Assembly: GCA_964574195.1 (NCBI GenBank)
Contig: CAZNMO010000009.1
Span: 1 to 45,346 of the forward strand
Direction of reading: 5' to 3'
Length of the DNA stretch: 45,346 nucleotides
Source of the DNA: an uncultured Clostridiaceae bacterium
Lineage (GTDB): Bacteria; Bacillota; Clostridia; Lutisporales; Lutisporaceae
Shown here in pieces: positions 12,719-33,748 of the stretch; position 1 is the stretch's first letter; the number at the start of each line of letters is the position of its first letter. Under the pieces are notes generated by a model. The model did not search any database. It worked only from the letters and a program-made list of their open reading frames with translations, and was not told the DNA's origin. The translations under genes and the position numbers were made by a program.

Positions 12719-13705
12719 TTACTTCTCTACAAATAGGACTTTGATAAACCCTTTCGCATAAGCGTCGTCAATCTTTGCTCCAGCAGCTCGTGGATGACCT
12801 CCACCGCCCATTTTCTGTGCGAATTCTCCAACGTGAACATCTTCCTTGATTCCTCGGAAGCTTATGGAGTTAGAACCAAAGTTCACCATAGCTATGAAGT
12901 CATACTCTGGATTTTCTGTGGCTAGTACATTCCCAAGCTCTGAGTGATACTGCTCTGCGAACACTACTCCAATGTGATAGCCGTGAGCGTCGATTGGAGT
13001 GATTTTGTCTTTGCGTGACTTGATGTACCGCTCCACTCGTTTGTTCTCCGTATCTACAAGAAGCTGCTCTGAACTTTTGAGGATTGCTTCTGGATTTTCA
13101 ACAAAGCGTTCCACAAATTTATATCGTCCAACAAGCATAAGTAGGTCGTTCAGTTGTTTTGGCAGCACTTGGTTGTACAAGTTGAACCACTCCCAAGTGT
13201 CATATCGTCGAATCTGTTCCACTAGGTCTACCAAACCATGGTCTATATCTTCAATCAACCCACAGTCGAACAGGTAATGGAAGAACAAACTTGTTCCGCT
13301 GGACATACGGTCTTCTCGGCTGTCAACGATACCAGGCAGCGCTTTCTCGTACACGTTCACAGAAGCCCAACCGTAGTCATTCAACCATTCTGCTGTAGCG
13401 TGATGGTCGATAAGCTGAACTTTGTCAGCGAAGCTTTCTTGAATCATGTCAGCTACTTCCTTATTCACAGAAATGTCTGTGATGAATACAGCGTCATAGT
13501 TCTCGTAGTCCTCTGACAACAAGAAGTTCTTCACCTTCTCGTCAATCTCGTTGTATCCGCAATACTCAACCTTACAACTGTCTCCAAACGTAACCTTACC
13601 AACGATAGCACAACCAACGCCGTCCAAGTCGTTGTGCGTGAATAACATCACTTTCAATGGTGTTCCTTCTTTCTCCTCGTTAGGGTTTTCCAAGAATATA
13701 GACAT
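12719..13705 (-). CDS. DHH/DHHA1-family phosphoesterase (NrnA-like)
   Basis: Motifs HNDLDGVGC, FITDIS, LIDHHAT and GGGHPRAAG. ATG at 13703-13705 (alternative 13711). Confidence 0.8.
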   Translation of the reverse strand: MSIFLENPNEEKEGTPLKVMLFTHNDLDGVGCAIVGKVTFGDSCKVEYCGYNEIDEKVKNFLLSEDYENYDAVFITDISVNKEVADMIQESFADKVQLIDHHATAEWLNDYGWASVNVYEKALPGIVDSREDRMSSGTSLFFHYLFDCGLIEDIDHGLVDLVEQIRRYDTWEWFNLYNQVLPKQLNDLLMLVGRYKFVERFVENPEAILKSSEQLLVDTENKRVERYIKSRKDKITPIDAHGYHIGVVFAEQYHSELGNVLATENPEYDFIAMVNFGSNSISFRGIKEDVHVGEFAQKMGGGGHPRAAGAKIDDAYAKGFIKVLFVEK

Positions 13706-13731
13706 ATTCATTCCTCCTTTTTATTTACAGA

Positions 13732-13843: not shown

Positions 13844-14434
13844 TCATATGAAACTCTGCCCTAACTCTACAAATGGGTGACGGTTGAAACGACTAGTAAG
13901 CAAGAACTTCAGGAAGCAAGTATGAGCGTGTGCTGCAGGCATAGTGCCACTAGCAAGTATGCTTCCAAACTCTCTGAAAGGCTTCTCAACCACAGTTATC
14001 GCTTCATCGTGGTCTAGTATCTGTGGTTCAGCAACGCCTTTGACTTCAGCGTAGAAGTAGTGAACAAGCTCGTTTGTGAAGCCCATAGATGAATAAGCTG
14101 CTCCCAGGTCTTCAATAACAGTAGGCGTGAATCCAGTTTCTTCTCGCACCTCACGAATCGCTGCTGACATTGGTAGTTCATTTGGGTTGATTCCGCCTGC
14201 TGGAAGTCCTAAACTGTACCCGTTTGCCCCAGTTCGGTACTCATGACACAACACAATTGTGTCATTAGTCGTATTCTTAATCATAACAACCACACAAGGA
14301 GCTTTCCTCACCAAGTCTCGGTTGATTAAGAGGTCTTTTGGCTCTGAAGACTTGAGTAATATATCCAGTTTGTCCACAGAAAATACTGGACCATCATATA
14401 CAGTTTCATTCTTGATTATTTTACTATGCGTCAT
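13844..14434 (-). CDS. Nudix hydrolase, NudF-like ADP-ribose pyrophosphatase
   Basis: Nudix box GGINPNELPMSAAIREVREETGF, followed by SSMGFTNE (compare SPGFTDE in ADPRases). Confidence 0.8.
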   Translation of the reverse strand: MTHSKIIKNETVYDGPVFSVDKLDILLKSSEPKDLLINRDLVRKAPCVVVMIKNTTNDTIVLCHEYRTGANGYSLGLPAGGINPNELPMSAAIREVREETGFTPTVIEDLGAAYSSMGFTNELVHYFYAEVKGVAEPQILDHDEAITVVEKPFREFGSILASGTMPAAHAHTCFLKFLLTSRFNRHPFVELGQSFI

Positions 14435-28664: not shown

Positions 28665-29435
28665 TCAGTTCCAGTCTGTTACTTCAACGCCAAGCTCTCT
28701 AAGCTTCTCAGCGCCCTCTTCTGTACCATCCCATTCGAATAACATTGGACCAACAGGGAATCCTCCAGCCGTCCCTTTCACTTCTCCTTCTTCCTTCAGG
28801 ATACGATTCATTTCAGCTTTCTGTTCACTAGTAGCAACAACGCTCTCTGTCACGCTGTACTTCTTTGTTTCTGCGTGTTTCCAATCTCCGCCATCCATAA
28901 TAGACGGTTTAGACAAAGGCGGTTCTGGATTGAAGTGAATCACTTCCGCTGGGTCATCCCCAAGGTAGAAATCTCTGTATCCAAGTACGCCGTGTACTGT
29001 TTCAACGGCTGCTCTAAATCCGTCTGGACCACCGTTTGACTCTATGATTATCTTATCTCCAAGATGATGTTTCGCTATCACTAGGAAGGTAGTGACTGCT
29101 ATGTCGTATGGTTTTCTATCAGTCTTACAGCATCGGAAAAATAGTTCTCTATCGGCGTATTTCTCGACGTCAACAAATTTCCCGTGCTCCTCTTGAAAGA
29201 AATAGAAGCACTCATGCCACTGGTCGTTCTCCCTTAAACCATTGAATACTACTGACCCTTTCCAGTTAGCTATTACTGGTTTGCCTTCACCTTCAGCTCC
29301 TGCTAGATTAAGGTTGAACCCCAAATCTTTGTTCCAACGTAGGTCTTTCAGAAGAGTTCTGAAGTCCTTCACAATAGCCGTGTAAGCTTCCTTTTCAATT
29401 ACTGCTTGACGATACCAATAGTGCGTATAACCCAT
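28665..29435 (-). CDS. hypothetical protein
   Basis: ATG at 29433-29435 after the cassette RBS. Promoter at 29492-29520. Confidence 0.65.
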   Translation of the reverse strand: MGYTHYWYRQAVIEKEAYTAIVKDFRTLLKDLRWNKDLGFNLNLAGAEGEGKPVIANWKGSVVFNGLRENDQWHECFYFFQEEHGKFVDVEKYADRELFFRCCKTDRKPYDIAVTTFLVIAKHHLGDKIIIESNGGPDGFRAAVETVHGVLGYRDFYLGDDPAEVIHFNPEPPLSKPSIMDGGDWKHAETKKYSVTESVVATSEQKAEMNRILKEEGEVKGTAGGFPVGPMLFEWDGTEEGAEKLRELGVEVTDWN

Positions 29436-29491
29436 TATAAATCCGCTCCTATTCAACTTGGATGTTAAGACGTTACCGCCTTACAAGTACA

Positions 29492-29520: not shown

Positions 29521-29606
29521 CTGTTTTCGTAAAACTTTTCAAATTATTTTTGACTCGTAAACACAAACAATGGAGCTAACAGGTTTCACCCACTAGCCCC
29601 ACAGCG

Positions 29607-29834
29607 TCACTCTCCCGATATTTCTTTGAATCTTTCCTCTTGTTCGATTACGCCATTTAATATGTCTCGTAGTTGTTTCACTTCCTCAAGGTCTAGCACA
29701 GGCTGTCCTTCATTGTTGAACACCCAGATTCCTTTTCCTCGCTCGTGTTCGATACCAAACACAGACTCTTCATAGACTTCTCCTTGTCTAATAAGAGAGT
29801 ACATAAACCCATCCGCTTCAAATTTACCGCTCAT
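29607..29834 (-). CDS. hypothetical protein
   Basis: ORF with GTGGAGG SD. Confidence 0.55.
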   Translation of the reverse strand: MSGKFEADGFMYSLIRQGEVYEESVFGIEHERGKGIWVFNNEGQPVLDLEEVKQLRDILNGVIEQEERFKEISGE

Positions 29835-29845
29835 ACCTCCACGTC

Positions 29846-30040
29846 CTATCTGTATCTTTTCTTACTACCAAACCCAAACATAATTTTACTAGCTGCGAAC
29901 ATTAGAAGCACCATCATAGTCGGCGTACTAATTTTGATGAGCGTGTATAGATAAGGATGCTGCGTAGCCCAAACCCACATTGCCATACTCTCCGTTGAAC
30001 CAGATAATAAACCCACTTCATTCCTCCTTCTTATTCTCAT
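29846..30040 (-). CDS. small membrane protein
   Basis: Two hydrophobic segments. ATGA overlap with the upstream stop. Confidence 0.5.
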   Translation of the reverse strand: MRIRRRNEVGLLSGSTESMAMWVWATQHPYLYTLIKISTPTMMVLLMFAASKIMFGFGSKKRYR

Positions 30041-30300
30041 TTACCTTTCGTGTAAAGCTTCATCCACACAGACTCAATAGCCATTCCAGAGAGGTTTAAA
30101 AGTTGATATGGTCTGTATCCCTTATGTTTAGATTCCACAACAACTACAGCGTTCTTGTGTCTCTCTATTATAATTGATTCCCATTGTTTGTAAGCTTTCG
30201 CATTTGGAGGGCAGGCTGGCTCGTAACATACGAATGTCGAACCAGGCTCACTCTGAATAACCTCCAGTAACGTACATTTGTCTCCGTCATTGATAATCAT
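30037..30300 (-). CDS. hypothetical protein
   Basis: Overlaps the nadR 3' end by 14 nt and lies in the same coupled string. Confidence 0.55.
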   Translation of the reverse strand: MIINDGDKCTLLEVIQSEPGSTFVCYEPACPPNAKAYKQWESIIIERHKNAVVVVESKHKGYRPYQLLNLSGMAIESVWMKLYTKGK

Positions 30301-31333
30301 AATTCTGTTCCACCGCTTTCTTGAGTAACTCTGCTGACGCTGATTTCGCTATCTCCCAACGTTCATCCCAAGTACCTTTTACATCAACCCATTTCACGCC
30401 ACGTGCTGTAAGTTCTGCCTTGAACTTCTCGAACACCTCATAACGATTGTCTTCAAATGTACGGCTTCCATCTTGAACCCAGGGAACGTCAGGATGACAC
30501 AATAATGTGAGGTCGTATTGCTCTTCATTGGCCAATCGCTCAACGAACTCGTCAACCTTCCCATATAGAAGCTCAGAGAATATCTTTGTAGTCAAATGGT
30601 CGGTGTCTATGAACAAGAGCTTGTCTGTATTGAAGTATGAAGCCATTACATCGATGTAATATCGGTGTCCCTCGGCTATTTGTACCAGGTCTTCATATCT
30701 GAACTCATTCATATTGTTGTTATAGGCTTCCTCTATGTAAGTCCGCCCGTACTCGTTTACATATTCTGTGTTAAACTCTTCAGCTAGTCTCTTGGTAAGC
30801 TCAGATTTGCCACAGCTCTCTCCACCTATAATGCGAACTTTCTTGATAAAGTACGGTCTAGCTGCCTCGCTGATGAAGTCCCATTCACCGTGTGGGTCTT
30901 GTCGGCACTGAGTACCGCTGATTGGGACTCTCTCACGCTCTAAATCCACCATATGATGCTCCGCTCCGAACAATTCTGCAAGTTCGTACCCATACATTTC
31001 AGAAGAAAACACAACGTCTATGGGTTCTGGGTGGTTTTTCTTGATTAAATCGTGCCAGATAGTCCAGAAATTTGTGTCTTCAGACGGTTCTTGTGGAACT
31101 ACCTTGTCATAATGGATGACTCTCACGCTCTTAGGTGGCTTTTTCATAGTCATAATCATAGAGCGCACAGATTTCCACATCCATCTGTATCGTTCTTCAC
31201 CTGGAATCGGTTCAGTTGGAAGACTGCACACAAGTATAGTCAACATATCGCAGTTCTCCAACCCAGTTTTTACAAGATACTCGTGACCTGTGTGTAACGG
31301 CATGAACTTCCCTAGTATTAATCCATGTTTCAT
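30287..31333 (-). CDS. nadR: NadR-type bifunctional NMN adenylyltransferase / ribosylnicotinamide kinase (no HTH domain)
   Basis: NMNAT motifs GKFMPLHTGH and ISGTQCR. Kinase Walker A GGESCGKS and Walker B LLFIDTD. Confidence 0.9.
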   Translation of the reverse strand: MKHGLILGKFMPLHTGHEYLVKTGLENCDMLTILVCSLPTEPIPGEERYRWMWKSVRSMIMTMKKPPKSVRVIHYDKVVPQEPSEDTNFWTIWHDLIKKNHPEPIDVVFSSEMYGYELAELFGAEHHMVDLERERVPISGTQCRQDPHGEWDFISEAARPYFIKKVRIIGGESCGKSELTKRLAEEFNTEYVNEYGRTYIEEAYNNNMNEFRYEDLVQIAEGHRYYIDVMASYFNTDKLLFIDTDHLTTKIFSELLYGKVDEFVERLANEEQYDLTLLCHPDVPWVQDGSRTFEDNRYEVFEKFKAELTARGVKWVDVKGTWDERWEIAKSASAELLKKAVEQNYDYQ

Positions 31334-31449
31334 TCTGTTTCCTCCTCCATTTCATCATCACATTCTGGGTCACAGCACTCCTCGGCTCTACCTTTAGTCA
31401 TATATTCCTCTTGACATATCCCGCATTTCCACATTTGATAAGCATCCAT
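31330..31449 (-). CDS. small Cys-rich acidic protein (39 aa), not in ORF track
   Basis: Peptide MDAYQMWKCGICQEEY..ECCDPEC. TGATG overlap upstream and ATGA overlap with the nadR start. SD GGAGGAA. Confidence 0.5.
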   Translation of the reverse strand: MDAYQMWKCGICQEEYMTKGRAEECCDPECDDEMEEETE

Positions 31450-31646
31450 CAGGATTCCTCCTTAACAGTAATAGTGAGAGCCGATTTACCATTGATTACA
31501 AGTTTTCCTCCGCCAGCTGAATCCAGGCTATACCCATTGTAAGCTCTTTGTAGTACCTCTGCTTCAGTCCCATCGAACAGAACATAGTAAGACACGCTTG
31601 GCGTATCGTGTGGACTAGTTACTGTAACAAAGAATTTGCGTTTCAT
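31449..31646 (-). CDS. hypothetical protein
   Basis: ATGA-coupled on the upstream side. Confidence 0.55.
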   Translation of the reverse strand: MKRKFFVTVTSPHDTPSVSYYVLFDGTEAEVLQRAYNGYSLDSAGGGKLVINGKSALTITVKEES

Positions 31647-31759
31647 TTCTCTTCCTCCTTGTCTCCTCGTTTAGGGAAAGTCATTTTTGGACAACACTTC
31701 TCTGCATCCTTCCAAGATAAATGTTTATTTCCGCACACCCTACAGATACATGTTGTCAT
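31643..31759 (-). CDS. small Cys-rich protein (38 aa), not in ORF track
   Basis: Peptide MTTCICRVCGNKH..EKCCPK. ATGA overlaps with the pnuC stop and the next start. Confidence 0.45.
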   Translation of the reverse strand: MTTCICRVCGNKHLSWKDAEKCCPKMTFPKRGDKEEEK

Positions 31760-32394
31760 AGTCCGTTCTCCGCTTCATATTCTTTCTTCCAAGCAATATA
31801 ACCATACACAGCGTTCGCCAAGAAGAATACATAAGTCAGAGCGACAATGTGAAGGTCTTTATACATATACATTCCGATAGATAGTACATCAATCGCAATC
31901 CATAACAACCAGTTCTCAAGGACTTTCTTACCCATAAAGAACTGCGCTACAACGGACATAGAAGCTACAAAAGCGTCAAGATACGGTATGGAAGCATTTG
32001 TGAAGTTGTGTAGACTTCCTCCCCACACAATCGTGATAGCTAGGATAACAGGAAGCAATAGAACCCATTCACGGGTTGTCATAACTCTCGTAGGTCGTAC
32101 AGGCTGCCCTTCTCGCTTAGTCAACCATATGAACCAACCATACAACGATAGTACAAAGAAGACAATCTGTAGTCCAGCATCAGCGTACAACTGGACGTTA
32201 TAGAACATATACACGTAGCATACTATGTTGACCAGTCCAACTGGATAAGTCCACACGTTCCTTTTCGCTGCTAGCCATACACAAAGCAGACCAGATATTG
32301 CCGATAATATTTCGATAGGTGAGGAGCTGGTAAAGTAGGCTACCGCTCCAAACACCGCTACTATGAATGAGTTTAAAAGGATTTTGTTTGTCAT
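31756..32394 (-). CDS. pnuC: nicotinamide riboside transporter PnuC
   Basis: Polytopic, 212 aa. AKRNVWTYPVGLVNIVCYVYMFY..LYADAGLQIVFFVLSLYGWFIW matches PnuC signatures. Confidence 0.85.
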   Translation of the reverse strand: MTNKILLNSFIVAVFGAVAYFTSSSPIEILSAISGLLCVWLAAKRNVWTYPVGLVNIVCYVYMFYNVQLYADAGLQIVFFVLSLYGWFIWLTKREGQPVRPTRVMTTREWVLLLPVILAITIVWGGSLHNFTNASIPYLDAFVASMSVVAQFFMGKKVLENWLLWIAIDVLSIGMYMYKDLHIVALTYVFFLANAVYGYIAWKKEYEAENGL

Positions 32395-32735
32395 TCGCTC
32401 ACCTCTGGTCTGAAAGTTTCTTCTCCGTCAGCAAACTCTGTTGTAACGTTTGCTGGATAACTGTTCTCGCTGAGCTTAAACATTTCCATACGCTCCTGGC
32501 GTTCATAATCTTGTACCGCTTGTAACTCAAAGTCTTCCTGGGATATAGCCTCATCAATTGCCACAATCTCAGAAGCCAGTACGGCACACTCTGTAAAGTT
32601 GATTACTTTTGGGTCATACTGTTTCAAACACCAAATCCATAGTCCAATAACGCTTCTCCCGTCATCCTCTTGTCTTGTTAATGTACGTTCAGTACCATTT
32701 TTAAACATAACTCTATACACGTTCACGTTGCTCAT
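32391..32735 (-). CDS. hypothetical protein
   Basis: GGGGGAGAAG SD. ATGA-coupled to pnuC. Confidence 0.6.
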   Translation of the reverse strand: MSNVNVYRVMFKNGTERTLTRQEDDGRSVIGLWIWCLKQYDPKVINFTECAVLASEIVAIDEAISQEDFELQAVQDYERQERMEMFKLSENSYPANVTTEFADGEETFRPEVSE

Positions 32736-33004
32736 TTCTTCTCCCCCTTGTATAGTTTCAAATCTCTCGTTAACATAACAACAGCGTTACCAGTATGCTC
32801 AGGAATGACTCTGCCCTCCTGACGTTCCCATAACACAACGGTTATCTCTGGAATTTGAGGCGTGGCGCTTCGAACCTCCACAACCTCCCCTATTACACGT
32901 CGGTTGAATAGTTTGAAGTAACCTTCATTAGTCTCAACCTTTGTCCCTGGAGGAAATATATGTTGTGACTTCGCTGGTGTTCTCCAGTTCTTTCTTCTTT
33001 TCAA
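32732..33004 (-). CDS. hypothetical protein
   Basis: TTG start after GGGAGAAG. Overlaps the upstream gene by 71 nt, so the start is uncertain. Confidence 0.45.
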   Translation of the reverse strand: MKRRKNWRTPAKSQHIFPPGTKVETNEGYFKLFNRRVIGEVVEVRSATPQIPEITVVLWERQEGRVIPEHTGNAVVMLTRDLKLYKGEKK

Positions 33005-33656
33005 TTATGAACTTCTCCCTTCCAATTACAGCCTGTTCTACCGTTGTAAAGATACCTACATAATACTGTTGTCCCTTATGATACCACATAGCTCTGAATC
33101 TGCCATCGCCGTTAGGGTAGACACCTTTTGCTCCGCTCTTGGCTTTCGCTTGTGGAGTACTGAAGGCTGGGTTCTCTAGTGACATAACCATTTGTTCAGA
33201 AACGTCCAACGTATTCAAGTCAGGAATCTGTATGTGTTTAGGCGCTTCAGGCTCTGGTTCTCCGCTGTATTTCGGTTTGAAGGTCTTTAAGTCCATACCG
33301 ATTACTTCAGTGGCAGTAGCAAGCCAGCAATCCTCACTACAGTGCTTTCCTAGCTTAGTTTCATAGAACTCATCGCCCTCGTTTATGATATGGTCGCAAT
33401 CCTTTCTAACGCAGGCTACAGCTTTTGGAGCATCATCGTACAGTATAAGCGCTGAACGATTTTCCTTGATGAAATCTTTCGCTTCACCATATGAGTCACC
33501 TTTGAACTTCTTACCTGTTACGGCTTGAATTTTCTCAATCTCCTTCCGCTGAGTGTACGTTACTATATTGCGTTTATTATTGTCTAGTTCGCCATAAACG
33601 TTTGTTTTCACTGTCTTCTTTCCGTATCTGCTACGATTAATTTTATCATAGTTCAT
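32934..33656 (-). CDS. AP2-domain DNA-binding protein
   Basis: The C-terminal GVYPNGDGRFRAMWYHKGQQYYVGIFTTVEQAVIGREKF fits the AP2/integrase-type DNA-binding pattern. No HNH motif was seen. Confidence 0.5.
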   Translation of the reverse strand: MNYDKINRSRYGKKTVKTNVYGELDNNKRNIVTYTQRKEIEKIQAVTGKKFKGDSYGEAKDFIKENRSALILYDDAPKAVACVRKDCDHIINEGDEFYETKLGKHCSEDCWLATATEVIGMDLKTFKPKYSGEPEPEAPKHIQIPDLNTLDVSEQMVMSLENPAFSTPQAKAKSGAKGVYPNGDGRFRAMWYHKGQQYYVGIFTTVEQAVIGREKFIIEKKKELENTSEVTTYISSRDKG

Positions 33657-33698: not shown

Positions 33699-33730
33699 TA
33701 AATAAAGTAGCAAAATAAAAACGCACTCCG
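33699..33730 (-). promoter_or_regulatory. class-II motif CGGAGT-N18-TTTATTTA
   Basis: Same geometry as the 27475 copy. Both are followed by TA(G/C)CGTATAAGGT. Confidence 0.5.
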
Positions 33731-33748
33731 CTGATGTGCAGAGTGCGT
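33711..33748 (-). terminator. terminator hairpin inside a promoter-proximal leader
   Basis: ACGCACTC-12 nt-GAGTGCGT followed by TTTTATTTTG, about 50 nt downstream of promoter 33803-33831. Confidence 0.55.

Follow-up and report, generated by a model that had tools for sequence, protein, structure and literature searches.

A probable NARP3-type nicotinamide riboside salvage module in the gene string of a Lysinibacillus Herelleviridae phage

Does a phage operon that holds the gene of a PnuC-type transporter and the gene of a NadR-like enzyme provide the infected cell with a route of its own to nicotinamide adenine dinucleotide (NAD+), and do the small open reading frames (ORFs) lying between the two genes take part in it? 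The question is raised by contig CAZNMO010000009.1 of assembly GCA_964574195.1, a stretch of 45,346 nucleotides which is called here the window. Judging from its sequence, the window quite probably carries a nicotinamide riboside (NR) salvage module of the type named NARP3, belonging to a Lysinibacillus phage of the Herelleviridae. The analysis establishes the identities of the two genes, the intactness of their motifs, the layout of the operon, purifying selection and the ancestry of the pair within phage lineages.

The region between 29500 and 33700 (4.2 kb) is 98.6-98.7% identical to the Lysinibacillus fusiformis phages vB_LfM_LysYB2 and LysYB1 (Herelleviridae, Spounavirinae), and from about 23 kb to 34.5 kb the coordinates of the annotated LysYB coding sequences match those in the window. 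Given this near identity to LysYB1 and LysYB2 the pair is phage-encoded, as it is in NARP3. The original prediction, which was made from the letters of the DNA, had framed the host as a Bacillus, and this has to be corrected as the near-identical phages infect Lysinibacillus fusiformis. In the LysYB records the PnuC protein is labelled as a nicotinamide mononucleotide (NMN) transporter, the NadR-like protein is described just as "AAA domain protein", and each of the three intervening small ORFs is a hypothetical protein. These small ORFs are indeed present as had been predicted, but they were not missed by the public annotation, where they are the coding sequences M5_0148 to M5_0150 (OP628076). 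The two genes in question are the following.

31756..32394, minus strand: pnuC, 212 aa, PnuC-type nicotinamide riboside transporter
30287..31333, minus strand: nadR-like gene, 348 aa, NMN adenylyltransferase (NMNAT) and ribosylnicotinamide kinase (RNK) without helix-turn-helix (HTH) domain

Both had been predicted at these positions, and family matches as well as motifs bear them out. The PnuC protein has homology to the Pfam family NMN_transporter PF04973 (E 8.7e-60), to phrog_1880 (E 9.7e-44) and to the solved PnuC structure 4QTN (E 1.7e-20). Moreover it scores 131.5 bits on the NCBIfam equivalog TIGR01528, which passes the cutoff of 42.45, and the locus holds in this way the PnuC-type NR transporter gene that belongs to a NARP3 module.

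The NadR-like protein aligns with positions 1-324 of the 325 of TIGR01526 (E 9.4e-77) and with positions 65-399 of NF005988, a model of trifunctional NadR which has 411 positions. Because this last alignment begins at position 65, the N-terminal HTH is missing, and the protein has the NMNAT and RNK domains of the NARP3 enzyme and not the marks of a trifunctional NadR, namely the HTH and scores above the curated cutoffs. Since the HTH repressor domain is absent the protein is predicted to act purely as an enzyme. It also matches Pfam AAA_28 (E 1.5e-35), phrog_3462 (E 2.4e-79) and the solved NadR-type structures 8X7F, 1LW7 and 9X6F (E 1e-42 to 1e-45, a value of 1.2e-41 being also obtained for 9X6F). 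In its translation are found GKFMPLHTGH (with the HTGH motif), ISGTQCR, the Walker A motif GGESCGKS and FIDTD. Structure 9X6F was taken to be Bas30_86, the NadR-like enzyme of NARP3, because 17 of the 17 residues numbered in the NARP3 paper fit this chain at an offset of 6. When the 17 residues mutated or described for Bas30_86 in that paper were mapped onto the window protein through the 9X6F alignment, nine were identical (K10, F11, S37, F110, S112, V139, I141, K168 and D275) and two were conservatively changed (R167 to K and E230 to D). In comparison with LysYB2, nadR presents 20 synonymous and 5 nonsynonymous codon differences and pnuC presents 8 and 2; this mostly synonymous divergence fits purifying selection on both genes.

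In the proposed mechanism PnuC would admit external NR to the infected cell, the NadR-like enzyme would use its C-terminal P-loop kinase domain to phosphorylate NR to NMN and so trap it, and its N-terminal HxGH nucleotidyltransferase domain to adenylate NMN with ATP, yielding NAD+. With both genes expressed from a single phage operon, NAD+ should be maintained during infection, and the benefit of the pair would be greatest when host NADase immunity (SIR2, TIR and DSR-type effectors) drains this cofactor. Such a route is already in the literature. Phage NadR has been catalogued by Iyer et al., and Osterman et al. (2024 preprint) reported that phage NadR genes are usually co-operonic with PnuC and proposed a further NAD+ reconstitution pathway. 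The phage pair of PnuC and NadR-like proteins was then named NARP3 by Yan et al. (Sci Adv, 12 Aug 2026, PMC13464706), who showed that Bas30_87 imports NR and that the HTH-less Bas30_86 converts NR to NMN and NMN to NAD+, and who reported crystal structures. In the same paper NARP3 rescues phage 10^3 to 10^4-fold from Sir2-HerA, counters DSR1 too and suffices as two genes alone in E. coli; 124 operons were counted and described as largely restricted to phages of Enterobacteriaceae. The import of NR, its conversion through NMN to NAD+ and the rescue from NADase defences have been demonstrated for Bas30_86 and Bas30_87 only, and by homology and intact motifs the proteins of this phage may be expected to have the same activity in Lysinibacillus infection. 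We infer that counter-defence, over general NAD+ supply, would be the selective reason for the module. The original prediction of a third, uptake-based NAD+ route serving as counter-defence was right in kind, the route being NARP3, but it was not new, and at this locus it would follow from homology and motifs. The main interpretation, uptake-based NAD+ replenishment, is already published, and the pair itself is an already annotated phage module.

The distribution of the two genes in phages is wide. With tblastn, homologs of NadR were obtained in 798 phage records and those of PnuC in 777, and the counts by genus are nearly equal for NadR and PnuC (Vibrio 355/355, Salmonella 173/175, Klebsiella 47/47, Bacillus 24/24 and Prevotella 15/15). 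These records include Prevotella Lak phages and Caulobacter phages as well as, for NadR, phages of Enterococcus and Lactobacillus, and the two genes are adjacent also in Vibrio phages and in T5-like phages of the BASEL collection. The best non-self NadR homologs are HTH-less and present 47-49% identity. Those relatives that were looked up are encoded on phage-like contigs, the longest of 170 kb, directly after the closest PnuC (55-56% identity), and the presence of the closest NadR and the closest PnuC on the same contigs indicates that the two genes are passed on as a pair in phage lineages. Among the best 120 matches listed, none was a protein of Lysinibacillus or Bacillus, and IMG/VR scans with NadR and PnuC as single proteins gave no close relatives.

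The junction between pnuC and nadR in these closest relatives is occupied by an unrelated ORF of 69-86 aa (in three loci, L011 to L013) or by nothing (L015). Such varied small ORFs, or their absence, indicate that the junction tolerates small insertions. The junction ORF of the closest modules is itself conserved (MxKxExxxxTxGExVDxLKSGQ..., at 5748-6008 in L011, 5784-6008 in L012 and 908-1117 in L013), and in these modules nadR is followed by an acyl-carrier-like PP-binding ORF and an NT5C nucleotidase. Their junction ORFs were considered as Tad2/DUF2829-like proteins and as homologs of the 65-aa or 87-aa ORF of the window, and both candidates were rejected for want of a Pfam match and of a BLASTP alignment, respectively.

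Some of the observations weigh against the assignment to NARP3. The PnuC family takes in transporters for other riboside vitamins too. The NadR-like protein obtains 258.4 bits on TIGR01526, below the equivalog cutoff of 341.15, and barely reaches NF005988 (201.5 bits against a cutoff of 201). Residues E80, P84 and G89 of the NMN site of Bas30_86, in a variable loop, are not conserved in the window protein, and the conserved NGW reads NFW. In addition pnuC and nadR are split by the three small ORFs (422 nt, 31334-31755) whereas the gap in T5-like BASEL phages is 1 nt; the directly adjacent, compact two-gene cassette of NARP3 is not seen here, while the common strand and the coupled string are shared. 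A different purpose for the pair is also conceivable, as the module could be a general metabolic booster that raises NAD+ for replication (NAD+-dependent ligase, redox demand) whatever the immunity of the host. PHROGs classes pnuC and nadR as auxiliary metabolic genes, the large phages that carry the module are very diverse (Vibrio, Lak megaphages, Caulobacter and Herelleviridae), that of the Enterococcus phage sits amid nucleotide-metabolism genes, and the window offers nothing linking the module to a particular defence. Nevertheless the homologous NARP3 gave its rescue of 10^3 to 10^4-fold specifically against Sir2-HerA and also countered DSR1 (PMC13464706), and we regard the booster explanation as rather unlikely. 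The two explanations are not mutually exclusive, as they share the same biochemistry and differ in the selective reason. It has also to be asked whether the pair is host cargo, captured recently and without role in the phage, which the original prediction had named as an outcome that would overturn it. PnuC and NadR are bacterial families and many bacterial NadR homologs are HTH-less, but the nearest non-self relatives share just 47-56% identity and are located on phage-like contigs, no Lysinibacillus or Bacillus protein appears among the best 120 matches listed, and the divergence is mostly synonymous. Moreover the order pnuC then nadR is common to other Firmicutes phages, including a Spounavirinae phage with the pair upstream of the terminase as in the window. 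Recent capture of host cargo is therefore hardly credible, and the NARP3-type module remains the preferred explanation.

Whether the small ORFs belong to this module has to be judged from the gene string in which they lie. On the minus strand one unbroken run of genes extends from about 33656 to 29607, and apart from pnuC and nadR its genes and signals are, in the direction of transcription, as follows.

33831-33803, minus strand: promoter-like site TTGACC-17-TATGGT ahead of the leader hairpin (consensus scan)
33721..33748, minus strand: terminator-like leader hairpin, ahead of the 240-aa ORF (consensus scan)
32934..33656, minus strand: 240-aa ORF, first in the string, with a C-terminal part (residues 161-236) resembling the DNA-binding portion of phage HNH-endonuclease families (phrog_99, E 1.8e-9)
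32732-33004, minus strand: possible 90-aa ORF
32391..32735, minus strand: 114-aa ORF, function unassigned, overlapping the start of pnuC by 4 nt, with weak PHROG matches only
31643..31759, minus strand: miniA, 38 aa, single finger CxxC-x12-CC (CRVCGNKHLSWKDAEKCC)
31449..31646, minus strand: 65-aa ORF, seen in the LysYB phage lineage only
31330..31449, minus strand: miniC, 39 aa, single finger WxCxxC-x12-CC (WKCGICQEEYMTKGRAEECC)
30037..30300, minus strand: 87-aa ORF, overlapping the 3' end of nadR by 14 nt, with no Pfam, NCBIfam or PHROG match
29846..30040, minus strand: 64-aa ORF, overlapping the 87-aa ORF by 4 nt, annotated shorter in LysYB2
29607..29834, minus strand: 75-aa ORF, last gene ahead of the terminator-like site
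29570..29602, minus strand: terminator-like hairpin from the consensus scan, with a stem of 15 pairs and a T-rich tail after it, where the transcription unit likely ends

The translationally coupled string with ATGA and TGATG overlaps that had been predicted is confirmed by coordinates and sequences. Overlaps of 4 nt (ATGA) join the 114-aa ORF to pnuC, pnuC to miniA, miniA to the 65-aa ORF, miniC to nadR and the 87-aa ORF to the 64-aa ORF; the junction of the 65-aa ORF with miniC is a 1-nt TGATG overlap, and that of nadR with the 87-aa ORF measures 14 nt. Shine-Dalgarno sequences lie 7-8 nt upstream and inside the preceding gene, being GGAG for miniA (8 nt) and AAGGAGG for the 65-aa ORF and miniC. 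The string is bracketed on the same strand by the terminator-like hairpins at 33748-33721 and 29602-29570, and the succession of a promoter-like site and a strong hairpin within the leader suggests an attenuation arrangement. A search of Rfam for NAD+ riboswitches and the pnuC-motif RNA gave no match, neither at gathering thresholds over the whole window nor with E up to 5 between 29400 and 34300. The 240-aa protein that heads the string has no significant Pfam family, and the nuclease part of the HNH families is unmatched; it may be a candidate standalone DNA-binding protein.

The two mini-ORFs, miniA and miniC, are paralogs with identical CxxC-x12-CC spacing and a common AE.CC. Neither they nor the 65-aa ORF match any Pfam, NCBIfam or PHROG family, tblastn on phages with the three ORFs returned LysYB1 and LysYB2 only (these ORFs being too short as queries), and word-indexed protein searches with the mini-ORF alignments gave nearly self-matches only. 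When 1.84 billion representative proteins were searched exhaustively with a profile of the two mini-ORFs, 12 further proteins of 36-191 aa (E 2e-10 to 8e-4) were retrieved, holding 1-4 matched stretches each; one of these proteins (P0007) is of the classical C2H2 type and not of the CC type. From these a finger unit can be written as [WFYH]-x-C-x2-C-x3-[HYFW]-x5-A-[E]-x-C-C, to which the mini-ORFs belong by profile similarity. The 26 units align without internal gaps, with C, C, A and CC invariant, an aromatic residue 2 positions ahead of the first Cys and a His or aromatic residue 4 positions past the second; in miniA the residue at position -2 is not aromatic. A scan of IMG/VR with the back-translated motif gave 68 stretches (L016-L083), about 60 of them within small ORFs that are intact and hold one or two units, and the remainder being out-of-frame, low-complexity chance matches. 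The unit occurs in single-finger proteins of 31-40 aa and in two-finger proteins of 60-85 aa, and the family phrog_32948 (about 119 aa, function unknown) has two fingers and a further CPxC...HCxxC element. Examples are L021 (1236-1295), L025 (4956-5096) and L059 (4684-4824) from IMG/VR and L006-L009 from metagenomes. The two-finger relatives match phrog_32948, which the mini-ORFs themselves do not match directly, and Pfam has no model for the unit.

A model of miniC computed by AlphaFold2 (AF2) with the unit alignment presents two short strands and a helix over residues 11-30, with block-mean predicted local distance difference test (pLDDT) values of 89-92. The top Foldseek matches in the PDB are almost all C2H2 fingers (Tramtrack, Zif268, CTCF and BCL11A). 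They superpose at 0.7-1.1 A across some 20 residues, with E values (0.75 or above) that are not significant for a domain of this small size. The spacing aromatic-x-C-x2-C-x3-aromatic-x8-ligand is common to C2H2 zinc fingers and the mini-ORF unit, which is predicted to take a beta-beta-alpha fold like theirs, but the unit has an adjacent CC at the end of the helix where the classical finger has H-x3-5-H. The mini-ORFs differ from classical C2H2 proteins in these ligands and in giving no zinc-finger Pfam match at E up to 0.1, and their finger relatives reach 12-18 bits on Pfam zf-C2H2, with a cutoff of 25.2. From the model and the spacing, the unit is a probable Cys4 zinc finger of C2H2-like topology, with CC replacing HxxxH and with putative metal binding. 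It is a recurrent, uncurated module of small phage proteins and a modestly novel by-product of this analysis.

The original prediction had also proposed that the mini zinc proteins may be regulators or accessory subunits. If the two fingers and the 65-aa ORF had been recruited as adjuncts of the PnuC-NadR module, their roles could include binding to PnuC or NadR, or adjusting expression or activity upon NAD+ depletion. It is in agreement with this that the small ORFs are translationally coupled between pnuC and nadR, have strong Shine-Dalgarno sequences and are arranged with the 65-aa ORF flanked by two paralogous fingers, whose fold, predicted to be zinc-finger-like, could serve for binding to nucleic acid or protein. 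The survey of related loci for co-occurrence, which had been suggested as a check, speaks against it. None of the 68 IMG/VR finger stretches has PnuC or NadR in the flanks examined (tblastn, 758 kb of loci), a finger ORF is present in 0 of 9 other PnuC-NadR loci, and the three metagenome contexts of the finger are plain strings of small phage genes, either by portal and terminase genes or with Dam, helicase and ribonucleotide reductase, with no PnuC or NadR. Furthermore NARP3 works in E. coli with two genes alone (PMC13464706), and the junction of the closest modules holds an unrelated 69-86-aa ORF or none. We consider the recruitment of the three small ORFs as adjuncts to be improbable. The association of the fingers with PnuC-NadR is most simply explained as specific to the LysYB lineage and incidental, and for the three ORFs the likeliest account is that they are small, independent phage genes which entered a junction permissive to insertion. 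Should the adjunct explanation be true, they would make a three-to-five-component variant of NARP3 and provide the first function for a widespread phage family of Cys4 fingers.

Other approaches to the small ORFs gave little. The single-sequence AF2 model of the 65-aa ORF has a pLDDT of 74, and a fold search gave no significant match in the PDB or BFVD but its own BFVD entry, which superposes poorly (8.3 A). The three ORFs were also considered as a mobile cassette marked by DNA repeats, an idea rejected as only short matches at chance level were found. Zero substitutions in the mini-ORF region in comparison with LysYB2 were likewise rejected as a sign of constraint, since the divergence follows a mosaic pattern, with 0-5 differences in many of the neighbouring kilobases as well.

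Elsewhere in the window, a 263-aa ORF at 28665-29456 (minus strand), just downstream of the terminator-like hairpin of the operon, is a hot spot of divergence from LysYB2, with 169 nt differences (62 nonsynonymous and 47 synonymous codons) against a difference of 0-2.5% in the flanking genes. Neither Pfam nor PHROG has a match for this ORF, which may be a fast-evolving host-interaction gene. A Nudix hydrolase at 13844-14434 (minus strand), with best matches to NudE and the YffH/AdpP ADP-sugar and ADP-ribose pyrophosphatases, all below cutoff, adjoins a DHH/DHHA1 phosphoesterase at 12719-13711 (minus strand), and both could be relevant to how this phage metabolises ADP-ribose or nucleotide signals. 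Three sigma-70-like sites with the hexamers TTGACG-17-TATGAT lie on the coding (minus) strand at 34972-34944, 34562-34534 and 29520-29492, and may represent a repeated phage early-promoter type.

Compared with known systems, the module has a presumed purpose, the rebuilding of NAD+ during infection, in common with NARP1, NARP2 and NadV/NatV of KVP40, although those pathways use other enzymes, start from ADP-ribose and nicotinamide or from nicotinamide and phosphoribosyl pyrophosphate, and have no transporter. The same two families and the same predicted chemistry, from NR through NMN to NAD+, are found in bacterial NR salvage (Haemophilus influenzae NadR 1LW7, the NadR of Salmonella and E. coli, and Neisseria PnuC 4QTN); unlike in these bacteria the window pair is without the HTH repressor, phage-borne and co-operonic, the E. 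coli genes being at separate loci. In NARP3 of Escherichia phage TrudiRoth (Bas30_86 and Bas30_87) a PnuC-type transporter and an HTH-less NMNAT-RNK enzyme are likewise encoded in one operon, and most of the mutationally important Bas30_86 residues are kept in the window protein. The NadR proteins of the T5-like enterobacterial phages, the group of Bas30, present about 32-33% identity to that of the window, which has the canonical nucleotidyltransferase motif HTGH where Bas30_86 has TRGH. The gene order also differs, being pnuC then nadR in the window and nadR then pnuC in the T5-like BASEL phages of the Bas26/Bas30 type, and so do the hosts, which are mostly enterobacterial for NARP3 and the Gram-positive Lysinibacillus for this Herelleviridae phage.

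The order pnuC then nadR is shared with four phages of Firmicutes, namely Bacillus phage PBC2, Exiguobacterium phage vB_EalM-132, Lactobacillus phage Lbab1 and Enterococcus phage EfsSzw-1, whose NadR proteins are 27-34% identical to that of the window. The two genes are directly adjacent in the first three whereas EfsSzw-1 has four different genes between them, and the finger mini-genes are in none of these loci. All four are large myoviruses, mostly Herelleviridae, in which the pair is already annotated as an NMN/NR transporter and an NMN adenylyltransferase. With these phages and that of the window, NARP3 counter-defence would extend to Gram-positive Herelleviridae phages, and the roughly 780-800 records for each gene are a far broader distribution than 124 mostly enterobacterial operons, which bears on estimates of how frequently phages rebuild NAD+ and on the choice or engineering of phages against hosts with NADase immunity.

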